From positions 4,711 through 68,710 of IMG/VR virus record IMGVR_UViG_3300012931_000001: a stretch of 64,000 nucleotides of DNA. One strand, given 5' to 3'. Source of the DNA: a virus. Made by a program: the position numbers and the translations under genes. A model generated the notes under the pieces. The model saw only the letters and a program-made list of their open reading frames with translations. It ran no database searches and was not told where the DNA came from. Shown here piece by piece: positions 2,513 to 33,814 of this stretch; the first letter of the stretch is position 1, and every line of letters begins with the position of its first letter.

Positions 2513-3106
2513 TTACGCTGTATAATTTGGCGTTGTTGCGCGTATAATCATCAACTGCTTCAGGTTGGTAGTCGAGATTGATTGAGCTTCAAATGATAGC
2601 TTTAATCCAACTCCGCTGTCCTGCGAAATCAGAGAGGCCGTCACTTGGCATTTAGGGAAGAAGATCGCGGTTTTCTTTTGCTTATCAAACACAGCCACAG
2701 GCATGATTTGAGTGTAGAAATTACCATCCACCCCAACGATGTCAGATGAAGTAAGCCAAGTGGAAGAGCTCAAGGAGGCGTCAGTAATAGACACACCACC
2801 CAAGAACTTCGTAGTTAGTGCTTTATTTAGCCTAATACATACAGCTTCAAAAGAATTCGTGCCGCCTTCGGCGTAAGAAGCTTCAACGTTACCATCTTCG
2901 TCCTTAATCTGCGTGATCTCAGGTTCGTCACCGGTCCAAGCCGCCGTACCATTGTACAGTGGACGTACTTTCATCGCGTTTGCGAATGAGGATACTTTTG
3001 CGGTTTCGTAAGCGGTGTCAGTAATCGCGTCGAAAACCACCAGTTCACCCAGCATGGAGAAGCATCCACCGACACTTGCATCCAAATTAGAAATAGTATT
3101 TGCCAT
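2513..3106 (-). CDS. Major tail (tube) protein
   Basis: 197 aa, S/T-rich and beta-rich; canonical position before the chaperone; followed by a terminator. Confidence 0.75.
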   Translation of the reverse strand: MANTISNLDASVGGCFSMLGELVVFDAITDTAYETAKVSSFANAMKVRPLYNGTAAWTGDEPEITQIKDEDGNVEASYAEGGTNSFEAVCIRLNKALTTKFLGGVSITDASLSSSTWLTSSDIVGVDGNFYTQIMPVAVFDKQKKTAIFFPKCQVTASLISQDSGVGLKLSFEAQSISTTNLKQLMIIRATTPNYTA

Positions 3107-4417: not shown

Positions 4418-4779
4418 TTCCAGAGGTATGATGCGTCGTAAACCATGCTTTCATTCGGAGTTGTCACTCCCCACTTGGCCCGCAGTGATTCTGCCCGCAG
4501 CCTCCATGCAGCGCGGTCGGATTCGGTCGCGCTGTATGAGGATGAGGATACGCTTCGGTTGTCAATCTTTACCGAGCTTCCGCCACCGGAAACGAATCCG
4601 GCTGCGGCTTCCCACATCATGGCCTCCATCAGGTCGCGGTTTTGCTCCGAGACCGTGCTCGCCAATACCCCTGACTCCACGCCATACCTCAAAAGCGCCC
4701 TCTCGATGGTGTCATCGGAGAAGTTGTAATTCGAGATTATGGATTGCAGATACTGGTTTATGGTCAGTGTAGATGCCAT
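4414..4779 (-). CDS. Head-tail adaptor protein
   Basis: 121 aa directly after the major capsid gene; helical N-terminus; SSVKIDNRSVS...LRAKWG C-terminus typical of adaptors. Confidence 0.6.
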   Translation of the reverse strand: MASTLTINQYLQSIISNYNFSDDTIERALLRYGVESGVLASTVSEQNRDLMEAMMWEAAAGFVSGGGSSVKIDNRSVSSSSYSATESDRAAWRLRAESLRAKWGVTTPNESMVYDASYLWK

Positions 4780-7675: not shown

Positions 7676-7723
7676 CAAATATAAACAATTAATATTCACC
7701 TTGCAATATTTTCCCTATATTTG
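7676..7723. promoter_or_regulatory. Divergent Bacteroidota-type -7 promoter boxes (head operon / terminase)
   Basis: TATATTTG on minus (7676-7683) and on plus (7716-7723); -33 boxes are not canonical. Confidence 0.55.
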
Positions 7724-7743
7724 TGTTAAAAATATTACCACCC

Positions 7744-9432
7744 ATGCTGAAATTGAAACAGGAACGGGTCGCTTGGCCTGCAAAATATCCGAAAGTGGAG
7801 AGGAAAGAGCCAACGATAGATGAGGAAGGCTGGGTAAAAGTGGATGGTAAACTGCTCAGAAAGGGCGTGGATATTATTCCACAGGAGGGGCTGCAAACCG
7901 AGATGATAACGGAAAACGTCGATATACAGCTACTCGGGGGAGACCCCGGGGCGGGGAAAAGCTACGGAATACTCTTAGCCGCATTGGACGGAATAGATAG
8001 ACCCGGATACGGCGCGCTAATAGTGAAAAAACAACTCGTCGCAACAAAAGGCGGGGCCGGTGGTATAATCGAAGACGCTAAGAGGATCTATATACCTTTC
8101 GCTGATTGTGAGTTTAGAGAGTCTGACAATCCGACTTTTTCATTTCCGGGATGGGGCACAGCGGTCACGTTTACCCATGCAAATTTCTCAGGAGAAAGCT
8201 CGAAATCCCTGACGGACGCACAGGAAAAATTCAAAAATTTTCAAATTTCCCATTTGTATGTAGATGAAGCAACCGACCATTCGTGGAAGGTTGTCAGTTA
8301 TTTATTGAGCAGAAATAGGGACAACTCGGGTGTCCCTCCAAAAATGATATTGACGTTCAATACGAATAGCGACCACTGGACAAGACAACTAATAGATTGG
8401 TGGATAGACGAACATGGCAATGTCATTCCAGAAAGAATCGGCGTTGTTAGATACTGTCATATCCAAGGAGATAGCGTCAGGGATATTGTATGGGGAAGCA
8501 CAAGGGAAGAAGTCGTCAGGCTGTGCGGGATCAAAATTAGGCAGGACTTGTCTGATTTCGGGATGTCCGCCGAGCAGTTGGTAATGTCGGTAATTTTCCG
8601 TCCAAGTGGAATGCTTGACAACAAGATACTGCTTTCCTCCACCAAAGGAAGGCACGCAGCGAATATCTTCAACCTTGGAGGTACAGAAACAGGCAAGTTG
8701 TATCATAACAACTGGAACCAGGAAGTTGAAGGCGTCGCAACCGTATCCCGCCAGATGATAAAAAATATGTGGGGGAACCCTACAATCGACGGAAGACAGA
8801 TGTACGCCTCCCTTGATGTGGCGGGTGGCGGAGACAACTGTGTTATGGTTATATGGAAAGAATTGACGATCGTCGCCATCGAAAATTTTGACGGGGATTA
8901 CAAACAGTTGGAGCAGTGGATTTCCGTTATACTACGGCAATACGGGGTTCCGATAGAAAATATGGCGTTTGACGCAACCGGATCTGGTTCATATCTGAAA
9001 TCGTATACTAACGGTCGGGCTATAACCGCCAATGCTCGGGCAATCCAAGAGGTTGACGAGGCGGGGAATCCCGTCCTGATGGAGCAGTTCTATAATATCC
9101 GCTCTCAGTTGATGGGTAAAATGCAATACCTGATGGAAACCGGCCAAATCTCCTGCTTGGTGGACATGCACAGATTATACCCGCATGGCAGTAAAAAAAC
9201 ACCAAAGGAGCTGATAGAAATCCTGTACGTAGAGGCCGACGAATTCCGGAGGACGACAAAAAACAATAAATTTTATTTCAAACTGAAGACCGAGTTCAAG
9301 GAAAGATACGGGTATTCTCCTGATTACTGGGATGCAATATTATATCGAGCAATATTTGAGTTGGAAAGCAAAAGCCGGAAGGAGATTGAGCAGGAACTTA
9401 CTATTGCTGATTATGCAGCGCTATGGGGATGA
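7744..9432 (+). CDS. terL: Terminase large subunit
   Basis: Walker A GGDPGAGKS, Walker B YVDEA, motif III TFN, nuclease motif LDVAGGGD, C-terminal SPDYWDA. Confidence 0.92.
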   Translation: MLKLKQERVAWPAKYPKVERKEPTIDEEGWVKVDGKLLRKGVDIIPQEGLQTEMITENVDIQLLGGDPGAGKSYGILLAALDGIDRPGYGALIVKKQLVATKGGAGGIIEDAKRIYIPFADCEFRESDNPTFSFPGWGTAVTFTHANFSGESSKSLTDAQEKFKNFQISHLYVDEATDHSWKVVSYLLSRNRDNSGVPPKMILTFNTNSDHWTRQLIDWWIDEHGNVIPERIGVVRYCHIQGDSVRDIVWGSTREEVVRLCGIKIRQDLSDFGMSAEQLVMSVIFRPSGMLDNKILLSSTKGRHAANIFNLGGTETGKLYHNNWNQEVEGVATVSRQMIKNMWGNPTIDGRQMYASLDVAGGGDNCVMVIWKELTIVAIENFDGDYKQLEQWISVILRQYGVPIENMAFDATGSGSYLKSYTNGRAITANARAIQEVDEAGNPVLMEQFYNIRSQLMGKMQYLMETGQISCLVDMHRLYPHGSKKTPKELIEILYVEADEFRRTTKNNKFYFKLKTEFKERYGYSPDYWDAILYRAIFELESKSRKEIEQELTIADYAALWG

Positions 9433-9442
9433 GTCTCCCTAA

Positions 9443-10084
9443 TTACTCGCTAAACGCATCCTCGATGCTCCATTTAAGTTTATAGAGTCTACAGTATGTT
9501 CTTGGGTATTTTATACCAAGAAACTCCGTCCACTGTTTTAGCGTCTTTGTCTCTCCCCTGAACTCTATGTTTAAATTTCTTCTGGTATTATTTGCCTGAG
9601 CCTTCGTATCGACCCATCGGCAATTTTCTGGACAATAGCCTTTCGAGTTATCAATCCTGTCTATAGTTAAAGAGTCCGTGTACATATTCTCCATAGCCCA
9701 CTCATAAAATCGACTAAAACCATCGACTTCATTCCATTCATCGCAAACCGTTATACCTCTTCCTCCGTAGTTTTTATAAGCCTCTCCAATTTCGCGTTTA
9801 GCACGATCACGCATAGCCCTCCATATTCTATAAATCCTTTCATTGCTCTTCCCGTGTGTGGTTAACGAGTCTAATAATTTAGCCTTATGCACGCAACCGC
9901 AACTCGTAGTGTGTCCAGATGTAATATGATAACCTTGGCTGATTACTTCTTCTGACCCGCAGTCGCATCGGCAAAGCCAAAATGCTCGACCTCCGTCATC
10001 TCTGCCGAAGAATTTAATAACAGTTAGCATCCCAAATTTTTGCCCAGTCAAATCTCGCCTTAACCCTCTAACCGATCTTGCCAT
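9443..10084 (-). CDS. Free-standing HNH-type homing endonuclease (AP2-like N-terminal repeat)
   Basis: DLTGQKFGMLTVI, WLCRCDCG, SCGC, YGGRGITVCDEW, TIDRIDNSKGYCPENCRW. Confidence 0.8.
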   Translation of the reverse strand: MARSVRGLRRDLTGQKFGMLTVIKFFGRDDGGRAFWLCRCDCGSEEVISQGYHITSGHTTSCGCVHKAKLLDSLTTHGKSNERIYRIWRAMRDRAKREIGEAYKNYGGRGITVCDEWNEVDGFSRFYEWAMENMYTDSLTIDRIDNSKGYCPENCRWVDTKAQANNTRRNLNIEFRGETKTLKQWTEFLGIKYPRTYCRLYKLKWSIEDAFSE

Positions 10085-10101
10085 AGTTTTTTAATTTAAA
10101 T

Positions 10102-10186
10102 AAGCCTAACGGTTCAGGAGTAGCGGTCCATCCCCGTAGGCTTAAAATACTATTTTTTTTTATATACGTCCCGCTACGGCATATAT
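10102..10186 (-). promoter_or_regulatory. Two-hairpin leader with complementary loops upstream of HNH gene 1
   Basis: Loop GTAGCGG of hairpin 1 is complementary to loop CCGCTAC of hairpin 2. Confidence 0.5.
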
Positions 10187-10201
10187 TTTTTTTGTTTTGA
10201 T

Positions 10202-10233
10202 AAAACCGCCCCCGCTTCACAGAGGGGACGGCT
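10202..10233 (-). terminator. Terminator closing the tRNA/ncRNA transcript
   Basis: AGCCGTCCCC-TCTGTGAAGC-GGGGGCGGT followed by TTT. Confidence 0.6.
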
Positions 10234-10310
10234 GTTTACGTTAACCTAAAACAAAATATATCGACACTGAGCAGTTCTGATGGTATGCGTTCGTGTACTG
10301 TTTTAAATTT

Positions 10311-10442
10311 AAGCCGCCACTAAGGACTTACCGTTCTTTTTACGCCTCAATCGGAGAACCAATTTTCGTCACCAACTTGTGATGCCGTCCGATAATCTTG
10401 TTCGCAAATACACTTAAATAAATCCGTCAAACATGGCGGCTT
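10311..10442 (-). ncRNA. Putative structured ncRNA
   Basis: 9-bp closing stem AAGCCGCCA/TGGCGGCTT, inner stems ATCGGA/TCCGAT and TCAC/GTGA; no ORF; lies inside the tRNA operon. Confidence 0.35.
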
Positions 10443-10460
10443 CTCGCCTTTGATGAGTTG

Positions 10461-10533
10461 TGGAGCGAAAGGGATTCAAACCCTTGACCTCCTGCTTGCA
10501 AAACAGGCGCTCTATCGGCTGAGCTACCACCCC
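10461..10533 (-). tRNA. tRNA-Ala(UGC), no encoded CCA
   Basis: Cloverleaf with G3:U70, anticodon arm CCTGT-TTTGCAA-GCAGG; T-loop variant TTTGAAT. Confidence 0.85.
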
Positions 10534-10616
10534 AATGAGCCGGTATAAATACATTCAGTCAAATTCCCGGCAGCCACCATCTTCTTTAGTGGTCTTTTGC
10601 TTTTAAATAAAGGTTG

Positions 10617-10691
10617 TGGAGAATAAAGGGTTCGAACCTCCAACCTCATTGCCATCAAGACAATACGCTCTACCAACTGAGCTAATTCCCC
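10617..10691 (-). tRNA. Atypical tRNA: Ala acceptor identity, 9-nt anticodon loop centred on UGA
   Basis: GGGGAAT/ATTCTCC-A with G3:U70; normal D and T arms; anticodon arm TATTG-TCTTGATGG-CAATG. Confidence 0.7.
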
Positions 10692-10785
10692 TGTTTGCCG
10701 TCTTTCCGAACTGTCATACATGAGCCGCGATTTTACTCGTCCTCGTTCCTAACCTCTGTAAGCGAGCTGATTCGAACAGCATTCG

Positions 10786-10859
10786 TGGGCGCATACGGAA
10801 TCGAACCGCAAACCTTGACTGTATAAGAGTCCTGCTCTAACCTATTGAGCTATATGCCC
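10786..10859 (-). tRNA. tRNA-Ile(UAU), no encoded CCA
   Basis: Cloverleaf; anticodon loop CT-TAT-AC; T-loop TTCGATT; one A-C mismatch in the acceptor stem. Confidence 0.85.
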
Positions 10860-11016
10860 GTTTTTCAAAAAGAAGTGTAGGCGTGTGGCGACGCCTCGTT
10901 TTTAACTTGCCAATAGCCCTGTACGTTTATCACCCGGCTCTTGGACTTGCCTGCATCTTCTGAAACGTCTGAAGGCACCATTTCAATTACCGACAAGCTC
11001 ACTCCTTTAAGAATTA

Positions 11017-22719: not shown

Positions 22720-24104
22720 ATGGTGTTCCAGAATAACGACCAAGATTATCCGCCCGGCGACAACGAAAAATATTCCGACTGCGAGGATTGCGGCGGAACT
22801 GGACGAATAGAGGATGATGATATTTGTCCGTCTTGTCTTGGTGTCGGATTTACTGAAAACGAAAATGAACCAGATTGGGATAACATAAGAGACGAACGCA
22901 ATGAAACACTTTAGTGACGACCTAATTGTAAAGCACCTGTCCCGTGTCGGCGAATACATGTACCGCAAAGGATTGCGCGATGCTGCTGAATCAACCGACA
23001 TCACTCCGGTCACAGAGTTGATAGAGCTGGACGATGCAAAGCAAACGCTTCGGTTCCTTTACGACGAAGGCGGGGTCGCGATGCAGAAGGATTTCTACTG
23101 CGACCTCTTGTGCGTCGTTTCAAGGCGCATAGGGGCACTCGCGGTCAGGGAGGCACTGATTGACCACAGCTATCCGAAAAGTGTCTGGCGTGGCACACCT
23201 ATGCTGATGAACGCCATGTATAGGGTCGGATTGAGGGACGGGCGCGGACTGGACCAATATGAAGCCAATAGTCTGTTCGAGTCGGTCGGAAGCGGAGACA
23301 AACACAAGCGTATCGGAGCCAGCAATATTTCCACCTCGAAATTCATCGACGAAATGAAGCTGGAACTCAGCCGTATCGAAAGTGAGTGTCAAAGTTATAC
23401 CGGATCGGCGGATGCCGGCGCGCTCAGGACTTTCATTTCATCAACGATCGAGCAAAAACGACTCAGAGAAGAAATGGAAAGGGAAGACTACTTTTTAAAT
23501 CTCAGGGACTTATGACACTTGAACACAATCTGTCAGACTGCAAGAACCGGGGTATGCTTATACCGTTCGGCTTGTATAAAAATTCATTCCTGCATGAGGT
23601 GAGCCCCGGCGAGATACTCGAAACAATGGATGACCCACCTGTTCGGATACGGGTCCTTGCCATTTCTGTCGTACAGGCAAAAAGTGAGTCGACGAATGCC
23701 ATATCCATGCTCCTGTATGGGCAGCCGATTGAGTCCATCATGGACATCATGCGCCGGAACTGGAAGCACGAGGTCGGGCAAGACTCATTGTTCCTGCTTA
23801 CATACGACATCGCATGATAACCGTAAAACATAAATTCCAGCCACGGATGTTCGTTCCGTGGTCGTCCATATCCGGGAACATTGCTTTTATGCACGGCGAA
23901 GACAAGGAGATCGAGACCGCAGACGGAATCGCGTGTGCGGTAAAAAAATATACGGAAATTCACATCCTGTCGCAAGAAGCGACCGAGCTGGTATCCGAAT
24001 TATACGACATGCAGGTCATGTCGTTTTTGAGGCTGTGGTACAAGAAATGTCCGTGGCTGAGCGAGATGTGGTTTGTTTATCTGGAACTTAAAAAAAATGA
24101 GTAA
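22720..24104 (+). other. Four hypothetical genes (22720-22914 with CxxC, 22901-23515, 23512-23817, 23814-24104)
   Basis: Overlapping stop/start junctions, co-oriented. Confidence 0.6.
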
Positions 24105-25662
24105 CCCTCTAACCCCTCTCCTTCTCCGCCCATACCAGCAGCGTATCATCGAGGCGACCACCCAATCTATGTTAAAAAACAATAGGCGGGGTGATCGCCA
24201 TATTGGGGTGTACGCTCCTTGCGGATCCGGCAAGAGCGTGTTGGCCGCATTTATGGCTCAAAACTCTGCAATAAAAGGAAACAGGACGCTTATTCTTACG
24301 CACAGGGCAGAGATTTTAAAGCAGAATTTTTTCAAGATGGAAATGCTTAGGCTTGACGTTTCGTTTATCAACGCGAACGTGACGAAAATTCCAACATCAC
24401 AGATTGTGTGCGCGATGGTTCAAACGCTTCGGTCGAGATGTGAAAGCGAAAGGCGGGCTGAGGAGTATATCGAGTTCATCGGATCGTTCGATTTTATCAT
24501 CATCGATGAGGCGCATCGCGCAGAACATGATATGATGTTTAAATATTTTAAAAAAAACGCGTGGGTCGTCGGGCTTTCGGCGACTTGGCTTAGGTCTGGA
24601 AACCAGAAGCAGTTGCGTGATTTTTATTTTGATATTGTCGCTCCGGTAACGCCATCTGAACTGATTGGCTTAGGCCACATCCTTCCGTCGGAAAATTATA
24701 TTTTCGATGCCCCAAAACTCGATGATGTTGCAGTGGATTATTCATCTGGGGATTATAATCAAAAACAATTGCAGTCAAGGTTTGCTAAACCTGAGCGTTA
24801 TTCTGGAATTATCGAAAATTACAAAAGGATCTGCCCTGGTAAAAAGGTAATTATTTTCACTACCGGATCACTTCATTGTATTGGGTTGACTAAAGAATTC
24901 TGCGATGCTGGTATAAAAGCCAAGTATCTTTTGTCTGAACGAAACCCTGATACTGACGCACGGTACTCAGGGGAACGCAGCGTTGTGTTAAATGAATTAA
25001 AGAGTGGTGACATAACGGCTCTTATCTCGGTCGAGATGATTTCAACGGGGCTTGATATGCCTGAACTTGAAGCCGTGATACTTGACTATTCCACCCAGTC
25101 ATACACTAAGTATCAGCAATCGGTGAATAGGCCATGCCGTCCGTTTGGAGGGCAAAAATCGTTTTTTGTTTTGGATTTCGGCTCTAACGTACAAATCTAC
25201 GGGAAGCCTGAAGCGGATCCTATAATGTCGCTATTTCATAAAGTTGGGGGAGGAGGGGTGGCGCCATCGAAAGTCTGCCCAGATGACCGCCAAGATAGCG
25301 AAGGCCGTACTGGATGCGGTCGGATATGGCCAATCTCGACGATGATTTGCCCTCGGTGCGGTTTTACGTGGCTGACCGATAAGCAACAGTATGAAGTAAC
25401 CCTTACAAAGATGGTTGAGAATATTGATTATGCGAATGAGACCATTCCGCAATTCTGTGCCAGGATGAAACTAAGAGGATGGGAGAATAAATGGATACTT
25501 CAGAATATCTGCAAAAAGAATAAGGATAACCAGAAGAAAGCATTTCTTGAAGCAATAAAAGTACTCAGGGGGAAGAATGGCGAAATGATAAGCCCGTGGT
25601 ACTGGAAGACATTCAGCGCGATATATTTAAAGGAAAAAAAGGGGGAAGAGCCGCAAACCTAA
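24097..25662 (+). CDS. SF2 DEAH-box helicase with C-terminal Zn ribbon
   Basis: LRPYQ, APCGSGKS, IIIDEAH, GLSAT, STGLDMP, QSVNRPCR, then CxxC pairs. Confidence 0.9.
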   Translation: MSNPLTPLLLRPYQQRIIEATTQSMLKNNRRGDRHIGVYAPCGSGKSVLAAFMAQNSAIKGNRTLILTHRAEILKQNFFKMEMLRLDVSFINANVTKIPTSQIVCAMVQTLRSRCESERRAEEYIEFIGSFDFIIIDEAHRAEHDMMFKYFKKNAWVVGLSATWLRSGNQKQLRDFYFDIVAPVTPSELIGLGHILPSENYIFDAPKLDDVAVDYSSGDYNQKQLQSRFAKPERYSGIIENYKRICPGKKVIIFTTGSLHCIGLTKEFCDAGIKAKYLLSERNPDTDARYSGERSVVLNELKSGDITALISVEMISTGLDMPELEAVILDYSTQSYTKYQQSVNRPCRPFGGQKSFFVLDFGSNVQIYGKPEADPIMSLFHKVGGGGVAPSKVCPDDRQDSEGRTGCGRIWPISTMICPRCGFTWLTDKQQYEVTLTKMVENIDYANETIPQFCARMKLRGWENKWILQNICKKNKDNQKKAFLEAIKVLRGKNGEMISPWYWKTFSAIYLKEKKGEEPQT

Positions 25663-26201
25663 ACTACATTTTTTCGTAATACACTTAACGCGCTTTGGTA
25701 AGCAATCGAGGCTAGCTCTTCTGATAAAAATGTTCCGATATATCTAGTTTTTCCATTAATATAGATAGTAGAAATCCACCCACCCCCACCGCTTTGTTTA
25801 GAAACACCAATATACTTGGATGTAAATAAATGATTATTTTTTCTATAGCAAATGGATGAGTTTTCCCTCTGTGTTACTATTTCTATATTATCAATGGTAT
25901 TTTTTAATTTATCTCCATTTATATGGTTTATCACTAGCTGGTATCCACACGGTTTGTGGTTTAAAAAGGCCATTGCCATTAATTGATGAATTGAAAAATT
26001 TTTATGCTTCTTCTCTTTACATAAAACAACATAATAGTACCCACGACTATCGAGGCACTGCTTTAAAATCCTCTCACCTACAGGCTGAATCCCATAAGTA
26101 TTTCTCACTACAACCCTTGCAATGCTTTTTACATTTGAAAAATTACTTATCTCATACAGTCCTTCATACCCAGGTATATCTTTCCAAACTTCTTCTTCCA
26201 T
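25659..26201 (-). CDS. NUMOD4-HNH-AP2 homing endonuclease
   Basis: EVWKDIPGYEGLYEISN (NUMOD4), IHQLMA..INHINGDKLKNTIDNIE (HNH), SKYIGVS..LGTF-like AP2; likely start 26201. Confidence 0.88.
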   Translation of the reverse strand: MEEEVWKDIPGYEGLYEISNFSNVKSIARVVVRNTYGIQPVGERILKQCLDSRGYYYVVLCKEKKHKNFSIHQLMAMAFLNHKPCGYQLVINHINGDKLKNTIDNIEIVTQRENSSICYRKNNHLFTSKYIGVSKQSGGGGWISTIYINGKTRYIGTFLSEELASIAYQSALSVLRKNVV

Positions 26202-26312
26202 AACAATAAAAACGCCCCCAATCAAATCATCGGGGTTCGACTACCGAATCAATGAAAGAGGGCTTAAAAGGTTAATTGCTATTGTCGAACCGCAATTTAT
26301 TCTACAAAGATA
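26202..26312 (-). promoter_or_regulatory. Promoter plus two-hairpin kissing-loop leader of HNH gene 2
   Basis: TATCTTTG (26312-26305); hairpin 1 loop GGTTCGAC; hairpin 2 loop GTCGAACC; U-tract before the ATG. Confidence 0.55.
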
Positions 26313-32902: not shown

Positions 32903-32974
32903 TTTCAAATTATTTATTTTCAAAAGCAAATATAATACAATTAATCCAAAATGTGCGGCTATTGTCCAATTATT

Positions 32975-33814
32975 TTAAATTTTTGACAATTTCCAGTCAG
33001 TCGGGTAATAATCGTCATTTCCGTACCTTTCTTGGAATGCATCCGATATATTTCTCCCGCAATGTACGGCCTCCCCATCCATTATATTCTTGACATACCA
33101 CATCTGCCACCACGAGAATGTGGAGCTACCGCCAATGAAATAGTCGCAGCTTGCACCAAGTACGAACTGATCCATAGGGTCTGAGTGGTACATCGGGCCG
33201 TGCAGGTGAGTATTGTTCGGCTCCGGGTAAAAGAACGGCTGGTCGTGAAAATAAGAGCGGCACCACGCGATGTCGTCGGAAAACACCACGACCTTGCTGT
33301 TCTTTTTCCATGAAGGATAAAACTTGCCAAGCGTTTCAAAATACCACGTCTCTGGTATCTGATAAAAAACCTCGTGCCCGACAAAATCTCCACGACGGAT
33401 TCCAAGCCCGACAAGCTGGGCTTCCTTGAACCCATCATATTTATCAAGGGTCGATTCTACGGCGTCGCGGCTAAACTGGAACTTTTCTTTCACTATTCCG
33501 ACGTCAAACCACTTCTCGGATTGCAGAAAGCAAGTCAGATCAAAATTTATAACCTTATTTCGATTGCTGCGAAAAAACTCATACATGTAATTTTTCGCTG
33601 TATCAGAATATCCCGGCCCCGGTGCCTGAAAAAGCAGGTCGTACTCGGTATCGGTAGTCAGTTTCGGCGGATGCGCAAGATATTTCCATAGAAAATATTT
33701 AGCCGGCATCTCCACCTCATGCCCGGTCGCCTCGGCCACGCTCACGATGGTCGCGTACACAAAAAGCCAGTTCCCGAGTCGTGTGTGCTGCCCAAATTGG
33801 TTGCATCGTATCAT
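32975..33814 (-). CDS. GT11 alpha-1,2-fucosyltransferase-like protein
   Basis: RLGNWLF, FLQSEKWF, GIRRGDF, VFSDDIAWC, SSTFSWW: the conserved GT11 motifs. Confidence 0.85.
   Translation of the reverse strand: MIRCNQFGQHTRLGNWLFVYATIVSVAEATGHEVEMPAKYFLWKYLAHPPKLTTDTEYDLLFQAPGPGYSDTAKNYMYEFFRSNRNKVINFDLTCFLQSEKWFDVGIVKEKFQFSRDAVESTLDKYDGFKEAQLVGLGIRRGDFVGHEVFYQIPETWYFETLGKFYPSWKKNSKVVVFSDDIAWCRSYFHDQPFFYPEPNNTHLHGPMYHSDPMDQFVLGASCDYFIGGSSTFSWWQMWYVKNIMDGEAVHCGRNISDAFQERYGNDDYYPTDWKLSKI

Follow-up and report, generated by a model that had tools for sequence, protein, structure and literature searches.

A two-hairpin kissing-loop RNA in front of an HNH endonuclease gene of an uncultured phage: a probable attenuator-type leader shared among phages

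Background

Homing endonucleases must stay at a low dose, and the few regulatory RNAs known for their genes all come from T-even phages. Hairpins sequestering the ribosome binding site (RBS) are found there in I-TevI, I-TevII, I-TevIII, segB and Aeh1 mobE, and T4 mobE and segF have intrinsic terminators at their 5' ends (PMC2988022). These RNA structures are thought to hold nuclease expression low or late, with expression occurring via read-through from upstream units (PMC2988022). The leader described here precedes HNH endonuclease gene 1 of an uncultured phage and is likewise a cis RNA structure at the start of a free-standing nuclease gene. The T-even regulators, however, are single hairpins with neither loop-loop pairing nor a G·A motif, and several of them hide the Shine-Dalgarno (SD) sequence, whereas in our leader the second hairpin ends 17 nt before the ATG, no SD is present, and RBS and start codon lie outside the hairpin. 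Furthermore, the fold is a tertiary one made of two hairpins, and it is also found before non-nuclease genes and alone. The same job is apparently done here by an RNA fold that is far more elaborate and also very abundant, with one narrow subtype alone occurring in at least 120 stretches of IMG/VR.

A comparable arrangement is known from the guanidine-IV (mepA) riboswitch, in which the loop of an upstream hairpin kisses a terminator-linked hairpin in the 5' leader and controls read-through (PMC11611296). According to the proposed mechanism, guanidine binding brings about the kissing loop, which in turn displaces the terminator; the loop sequences are conserved (PMC11611296). Our leader has an upstream loop kissing a terminator-type hairpin in a 5' leader, too. 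Unlike in guanidine-IV, the loops of the leader family are hypervariable and fully complementary, their pairing is compatible with the terminator hairpin, no ligand is indicated and there is no Rfam match.

In P4 CI (seqA/seqB/seqC) and P1/P7 C4, short complementary leader segments pair in cis or trans, which results in premature termination or a translational block. Thereby, a processed RNA acts on repeated target sites and controls prophage immunity genes. Each copy of our leader, in contrast, contains one intramolecular loop-loop helix, and neither repeated target sites nor signals for processing were observed. The analogy to P4 CI and P1 C4 drawn by the first-pass annotation of this DNA can be kept in a loose sense only, as there is no Rfam C4 match, no pairing to the start region and one complementary pair. 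Bidirectional or convergent intrinsic terminators resemble the locus in that convergent transcripts meet at this site, both strands are foldable and T-runs flank the first hairpin of the window. They differ from it in that loop sequences and internal-loop motif are conserved here and that strand-specific covariance model matches indicate a leader family. The element would work like a leader attenuator, yet it belongs to none of these families.

At positions 9900-11000 of the window, Rfam (E<=1) returned tRNAs and one chance plus-strand match only, and for six family members (E<=1) it returned no family match but sub-threshold chance matches only. Full-text literature searches found no description of such leaders. 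The family is thus absent from Rfam and the searched literature, and it provides a directly testable model for the control of termination in Bacteroidota, a group in which little is known about leader regulation.

The leader and its surroundings

The window is the whole stretch of DNA analysed, i.e. 64,000 nt (positions 4,711 to 68,710) of IMG/VR virus record IMGVR_UViG_3300012931_000001. The features around the leader are, in window positions:

7723..9432, plus strand: large terminase gene (terL), convergent with the leader and HNH gene 1
9443..10084, minus strand: HNH endonuclease gene 1, 213 aa, phrog_374 type
10085..10100, minus strand: tail and linker to the start codon (UUUAAAUUAAAAAACU), U/A-rich, 5 U in the first 8 nt
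10101..10144, minus strand: hairpin 2 (H2), 11-bp lower stem with a 1-nt bulge, from the minimum free energy (MFE) fold
10145..10161, minus strand: spacer between H1 and H2, A/U-rich, 17 nt, from alignment A3
10162..10186, minus strand: hairpin 1 (H1), AU-rich stem with one U·G pair and an A bulge, loop GUAGCG, from the MFE fold
10202..10232, minus strand: GC-rich intrinsic terminator of the tRNA cluster, directly upstream of H1

HNH gene 1 occupies the space between the terL stop (9432) and the leader. Together with the leader, the GC-rich terminator and three tRNA genes it forms a minus-strand block facing terL in the 71-kb genome of this uncultured phage. The public gene call for HNH gene 1 (P0001) is a 149-aa truncation; homologues cover residues 2-211 of the 213-aa ORF starting from ATG 10084.

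Fold of the leader

Since HNH gene 1 is located on the minus strand, the leader was read on this strand, and the 116 nt upstream of the gene were folded. The MFE structure of window 10085-10200 contains two hairpins (-26.0 kcal/mol, z -2.9 to -3.1). Above its lower stem, H2 carries a 4x4 internal loop GGAU/UGAA (tandem G·A), a 3-bp apical stem GGA/UCC and the 7-nt apical loop CCGCUAC (10126-10120). This loop is the exact complement of the 7-mer GUAGCGG at 10177-10171, which comprises the H1 loop GUAGCG and its closing G. The complementarity ends at the loop borders, with none in the flanks, and both 7-mers are predicted to be unpaired (P 0.84-1.0) with the exception of the closing G. The linker between the end of H2 and ATG 10084 (17 nt) is unpaired in the MFE structure, too.

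A loop-loop match of 7 nt was reached in none of 1000 dinucleotide shuffles and one of 6 nt in 2 of 1000, and only two other 7-nt cases exist on both strands of the 71-kb genome, both of them AT-rich. The loop match in the window leader is not due to chance. MFE folding and shuffles thus confirm what had been proposed from the letters of the sequence, namely two hairpins with complementary GUAGCGG/CCGCUAC loops, the second one ending 17 nt before the ATG. Enrichment of GTAGCGG was sought across the window and was not found. The word TTTTAAGCC, shared by this leader and a second leader of the window, occurs 5 times in the window compared to 1.2 expected.

H2 is stable and its tail reads UUAUUUAA; a consensus terminator scan gave no call at H2. 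A genome scan for MFE hairpins with strict stems missed the leader on account of the short apical stem of H2 (3 bp) and recovered it once the stem requirement was relaxed. A naive loop-pair detector, with which 14% of shuffles reach 7 nt and enrichment is weak, was replaced by motif-anchored tests.

The same leader without a nuclease gene in a relative

In a related phage (L087, record G005), the terL of which is 63% identical to that of the window, a homologous two-hairpin element starts 17 nt past the terL stop. The HNH gene is absent from this phage, and the two phages differ at this site by the HNH ORF alone. The leader is 82-88% identical between window and L087, the surrounding coding DNA 65-70%, and the leader is the sole conserved non-coding piece between them. 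Substitutions affect 1 of 44 stem positions and 16 of 42 non-stem positions (Fisher p = 2e-5), the single stem change converting the U·G pair to U-A. The spacer measures 17 nt in the window leader and 15 in that of L087, with differences in 10 of 17 columns. In the kissing helix, one compensatory change from G:C to A:U is found and the terminal pair is lost, leaving a 6-nt match in L087; the window leader's own loop covariation is therefore one event seen in two sequences of this leader only (p ~0.1, an estimate). The internal loop of H2 is UGAU/UGAU in L087 compared to GGAU/UGAA in the window, the tandem G·A being flanked by U·U.

Upstream of the L087 leader, a TATTTTTA box is located 5 nt before H1, and 7 of the 8 nt following H2 are U. 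Downstream of it there is nothing but the antisense 3' end of terL. The 17 nt separating H2 from the ATG in the window are matched in L087 by 17 homologous nt separating H2 from the terL stop, indicating that the insertion in the window is essentially a bare ORF. Either the leader was already in place when the nuclease ORF arrived behind it, or L087 lost the ORF cleanly; in both cases the comparison suggests that the leader predates or outlives the nuclease at this site. The pair illustrates that a leader can persist at a site with the nuclease ORF present or absent. The orphan leader (L087:5700-5800, G005:C1:28518-28618), having a -7-like box, both hairpins and a U-run, could be a stand-alone RNA gene of ~95 nt or the scar of a lost nuclease ORF.

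Among the other terL relatives covered by metagenome and viral scans, only G005 has the leader, the others carrying different genes in the slot. A model of the window and L087 leaders (R1) yielded no further copy in 80 HNH loci, in the terL relatives and in G001-G005, and blastn of the leader against the phage collection gave no match. Exact-pattern scans for closer homologues hit the G005 contig only, apart from chance matches in a CRISPR array (L095) and in an unrelated coding stretch of a MAG labelled Bordetella (L107). The CRISPR array (L095:250-600, repeat GTATCCCCCGCGCAAGCGGGGATGGACC), which matched the hairpin-2 pattern by chance, is located on a 63.9-kb IMG/VR viral contig.

A second leader at 26 kb and leaders of related nuclease genes

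The window contains another leader of the same class:

26202..26312, minus strand: second leader, -7 box TATCTTTG at 26312-26305

Its H1 (26297-26274) has the stem AAUUGC/GCAAUU and a 12-nt loop. H2 (26263-26214) contains an internal loop UUGAU/UGAUU, a 4-bp apical stem UCGG/CCGA and the loop UAGUCGAACC, and is followed by GUUUUU. The 10-nt loop of H2 shows 8-nt complementarity to the H1 loop. This fold is the MFE structure for the isolated hairpin only; the whole leader is no better than shuffles (z -0.4 to -1.4). The NUMOD4-HNH gene behind it (25659-26201, minus strand) most likely starts at ATG 26201 (MEEEVWKDIPGYEG) and not at TTG 26225 of the ORF list, and its stop codon and that of the convergent gene 24073-25662 overlap.

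We examined 80 loci encoding homologues of the NUMOD4-HNH protein for leaders. Several of them exhibit a TAnnTTTG box followed by the same two-hairpin layout, with matching loops of their own, and then the ATG. In L113, L114 and L126, GUAGUGC pairs with GCACUAC above an internal loop CGAU/UGAA, and in L110 the loop match is 10 nt long. The leaders of L108, L122 and L176 carry GUUGCGG, GUUACGG and GUUGCAG, respectively, with their complements and an internal loop GAGUA/GAAA. The loops of L109 (AAUUCGAC with GUCGAAUU) are two compensatory changes apart from those of the related 26-kb leader (GGUUCGAC with GUCGAACC), with AA in place of GG in loop 1 of L109 and UU in place of CC in its loop 2. 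That the HNH gene at 26 kb has the same architecture with different loops, as claimed by the first-pass annotation, holds down to the UGAU/UGAU-type internal loop, and L109 covaries with this leader.

Covariance models place the window leader in a family

Two covariance models trained on leaders from unrelated contigs, with no sequence of the window or G005, were used, R2 built from L113, L114 and L126 only and R3 built from 62 IMG/VR leaders (alignment A10). The best R2 matches in the window and G005 were window 10093-10185 on the minus strand (25.2 bits) and the G005 copy (22.5 bits). The top two matches of R3 were the G005 copy (25.3 bits) and window 10091-10186 on the minus strand (21.7 bits), both over the full length. 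The window leader aligns full length to both models (R2 1-87, R3 1-94), with H2 entirely covered in each case. R2 additionally finds L122, L124 and L108. From 255 kb searched, both models pick the same ~95 nt and the same strand, with marginal E-values from a rough calibration (about 0.007-0.025 for R2 and about 0.08 for R3). As both land on the same pre-specified place and strand in spite of these marginal values, the window leader is a member of the family.

The 26-kb leader went undetected by R2 and R3. An R2 match at 32934-33019 is noise, and descriptor matches at window 45409, at window 32524 and in L011 look like chance inside coding sequence. A MAFFT alignment of nine diverse leaders (A7) was structurally inconsistent and was not used.

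Thermodynamics differ by strand, the window leader folding better on the minus strand and the L087 leader on the plus strand (z -5.05). The leader is nevertheless assigned to the minus strand on the basis of R2, R3 and the G·A motif, not of thermodynamics. Only the minus strand contains the G·A internal loop, the plus strand being AUCA/AUCA-like at this place.

The family design follows the order host-type -7 box, H1, A/U spacer, H2, U-run and, 7-25 nt further on, a start codon. H2 has a long terminator-like stem, a G·A loop that is either a tandem G·A or loop-E-like (GAGUA/GAAA), and an apical stem of 3-4 bp. The gene behind the leader is most often a homing endonuclease. The window leader fits this design in length (~90-100 nt), in the order of H1, A/U spacer and long H2, and in its loop-loop complementarity of at least 6 nt (usually 7; 7 nt in the window, 6 nt in L087). 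It fits in its G·A-rich internal loop (NGAU/UGAN or GAGUA/GAAA) under an apical stem of 3-4 bp, too, and belongs to the tandem-G·A subtype. The ATG follows 17 nt after H2, i.e. within ~25 nt, but only 5 of 8 nt are U, which is the weakest U-run seen; the L087 leader has 7 of 8 U and no gene.

The window leader departs from the family in lacking a -7 box (TAnnTTT[G/A]) ending 2-8 nt before H1. The usual position of the box is taken by a poly-A run and the terminator of the tRNA operon. The closest look-alike, TATATTTTG at 10260-10252 on the minus strand, lies upstream of the GC-rich terminator. This sequence, situated between tRNA-Ala and the terminator, is a near-consensus -7 box with one extra T; if it were active, its transcript would run into the GC-rich terminator and then the leader.

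Covariation and downstream genes in IMG/VR

IMG/VR was scanned for the loop-E-type H2 apex with the loop left free, which gave at least 120 stretches and at least 83 distinct matches. Among the matches listed, 72 of 83 distinct ones (87%) have a cognate H1 match of at least 7 nt, with 44 different loop sequences; for non-cognate pairs, again among the matches listed, this applies to 31 of 830. In nine leaders, cognate loop matches are 6-10 nt long compared to a non-cognate mean of 4.1 (0 of 100,000 permutations). The 62 sequences of alignment A10 were kept for a loop match of at least 7 nt, a trait of 87% of the unselected matches listed. Pairing of the kissing helix reaches 99.8% in this alignment, with changes on both sides in 6 of the 7 pairs, and H1 and the lower stem of H2 covary, too. 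None of 500 shuffles reached any of these measures, and slid registers pair in 33-43% of cells. Loop covariation among homologues, on which the first-pass annotation had made its reading depend, is thus present. As the sequence of the kissing helix differs in almost every copy, it ranks among the clearest examples of natural covariation in a kissing complex.

A G·A-rich internal loop below a short apical stem is common to all family copies, and a U-run before a start codon to most of them. Among the matches listed, a -7 box ends 2-8 nt before H1 in 54 of 72 copies, 6-7 U occur in the 8 nt after H2 in 63 of 72, and an ORF starts 18-60 nt past the H2 apex motif in at least 70 of 72 loop-E-type copies. 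Pfam domains recognised in the 58 distinct downstream proteins among the matches listed include NUMOD4/HNH_3 (18), NUMOD3 (7), GIY-YIG (4), AP2 (4), NUMOD1 (3), HNH_5 (2) and HNH (1). The remaining products include DUF6291 (5), primase/helicase types, KilA-N and HTH proteins. About 40% of the family copies among the matches listed stand before non-nuclease genes.

At 80 loci with homologues of the HNH gene 1 protein, none carries the leader. This indicates that the leader is tied to the phage group and its promoter type and not to one nuclease family. The proposal of a conserved cis-acting RNA travelling with selfish endonuclease genes therefore stands in part. A conserved structured RNA is present on the HNH-coding strand, as seen from the compensatory loop changes, and relatives of the design occur just upstream of homing endonuclease genes of several families. 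Strict travelling with the nuclease is not supported, given the L087 leader without HNH gene, the non-nuclease genes behind about 40% of the copies listed and the 0 of 80 homologues of HNH gene 1.

Possible function of the leader

Beyond fold, strand, family membership and loop covariation, we consider it fairly likely (probability about 0.6) that window 10085-10190 on the minus strand is a copy of an undescribed leader RNA family of Bacteroidota-type phages, in which H2 acts as a terminator or attenuator limiting the downstream nuclease. H2 and the U-run would constitute an intrinsic terminator or attenuator in the 5' leader, at which most transcripts would stop, and the nuclease would be made from read-through transcripts only. 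The kissing helix and the G·A motif could give a defined tertiary fold that fixes the termination efficiency. Alternatively it might be that this fold is a handle for a factor altering read-through. HNH gene 1 probably needs leaky read-through, since the -7 box is replaced by a poly-A run behind the tRNA terminator and the U-run is weakened. It may thus rely on leaky read-through of two terminators, opposed by convergent terL transcription, an arrangement that would fit the low expression expected of nuclease genes.

A more far-reaching version of this idea, which we regard as doubtful although conceivable, describes the leader as an autonomous portable module made up of a promoter, a kissing fold whose G·A motif binds a protein or ligand, and a terminator. 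It would act as a regulated gate and also offer bare nuclease ORFs a place to land; these would be gained and lost behind a leader that persists, as in the pair of window and L087. Its loop code would be self-matching, and read-through would be set by a factor. If this were true, the leaders would represent a new class of phage riboregulator, and the fast-changing loop code would keep each copy folding with itself alone.

The conserved stems and the complete orphan copy could also mean that the ~95-nt RNA itself is the product, i.e. a small RNA gene with its own function, behind which cassette genes insert and borrow leaky read-through. The L087 copy with its TATTTTTA box and 7 of 8 U has no gene downstream, its stems and those of the window leader are under purifying selection, the HNH ORF is the only difference between the two phages, and the genes behind family leaders are of unrelated types. 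We nevertheless regard a small RNA gene as unlikely, because an ORF behind at least 70 of 72 loop-E-type copies among the matches listed makes orphans rare, a trans target is not evident, and the hypervariable loops match their own partner only. Still less probable in our opinion is that the element belongs to the phage backbone at the convergent junction and is no nuclease leader, the HNH ORF having simply been dropped in front of it. It would then provide face-to-face terminators or a 3'-end stabiliser for terL on the plus strand and the tRNA/portal block on the minus strand. A terL terminator was in fact the first reading of the site, given L087 without HNH gene, the T-runs and the convergent junction. 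The position of the L087 element 17 nt past the terL stop, the variable slot after terL in all relatives, the T9 and T8 flanking the plus-strand complement of the window H1, and the better plus-strand fold of the L087 copy (z -5.05) all agree with it. It was downgraded by the minus-strand R2 and R3 matches and the strand-specific G·A motif: both models, trained on promoter-proximal nuclease leaders, match the minus strand only, and the conserved G·A loop becomes AUCA/AUCA-like on the plus strand. Moreover, plain terminators of these phages are simple hairpins, and conserved loop-loop pairing is unnecessary for a terminator. In the window, the plus-strand complement of H1 may have a secondary role as the terL terminator.

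Chance complementarity of the loops, or a DNA-level site such as inverted protein half-sites or a homing target in place of RNA pairing, is close to refuted. The longest inverted repeat of the region is equalled in 9% of shuffles, and GTAGCGG is not enriched in the window, as would suit such a reading. Against this, the match does not reach beyond the two apical loops and was equalled in none of 1000 shuffles, it is preserved in L087 by a compensatory change, and a fixed protein site would not allow the 44 loop sequences among the matches listed with their 99.8% pairing.

The slot downstream of terL

In every relative, a different minus-strand gene is located downstream of terL (L092:2840-5544, L082:5725-6255, L085:5494-6102, L084:5799-6164); in L092, this is a long minus-strand ORF directly after terL. 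The slot behind terL is an insertion hot spot. Many terL homologues in this phage group have 650-950 aa and contain LAGLIDADG or Hom_end intein-type domains (PF14528, PF05204). Examples are P0132-P0134, P0140, P0142-P0143 and L085:2675-5479, one of them from Parabacteroides phage PF672P1.

Other leader types before related nuclease genes

Variant leaders were detected before the NUMOD4-HNH genes of L117 (1370-1497) and L119 (1374-1494). In these loci, the transcript begins directly behind TATATTTG with 12-13 nt complementary to the loop of a terminal hairpin of more complex shape. Another leader type precedes the NUMOD4-HNH genes of L125 (595-725) and L118 (1340-1500), in which TATATTTG is followed by a terminator-like hairpin with GUUCACGUU; its complement AACGUGAA lies beyond the U-run near the start codon. 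HNH homologues are also encoded by sigma-70-type phages (L022 and L024, about 2860-2990; L061, about 2880-3010). There, the loop of an upstream hairpin (e.g. CUUACUC) is complementary to the SD region (GAGUAAGGAG), representing a different, anti-SD style of nuclease leader.
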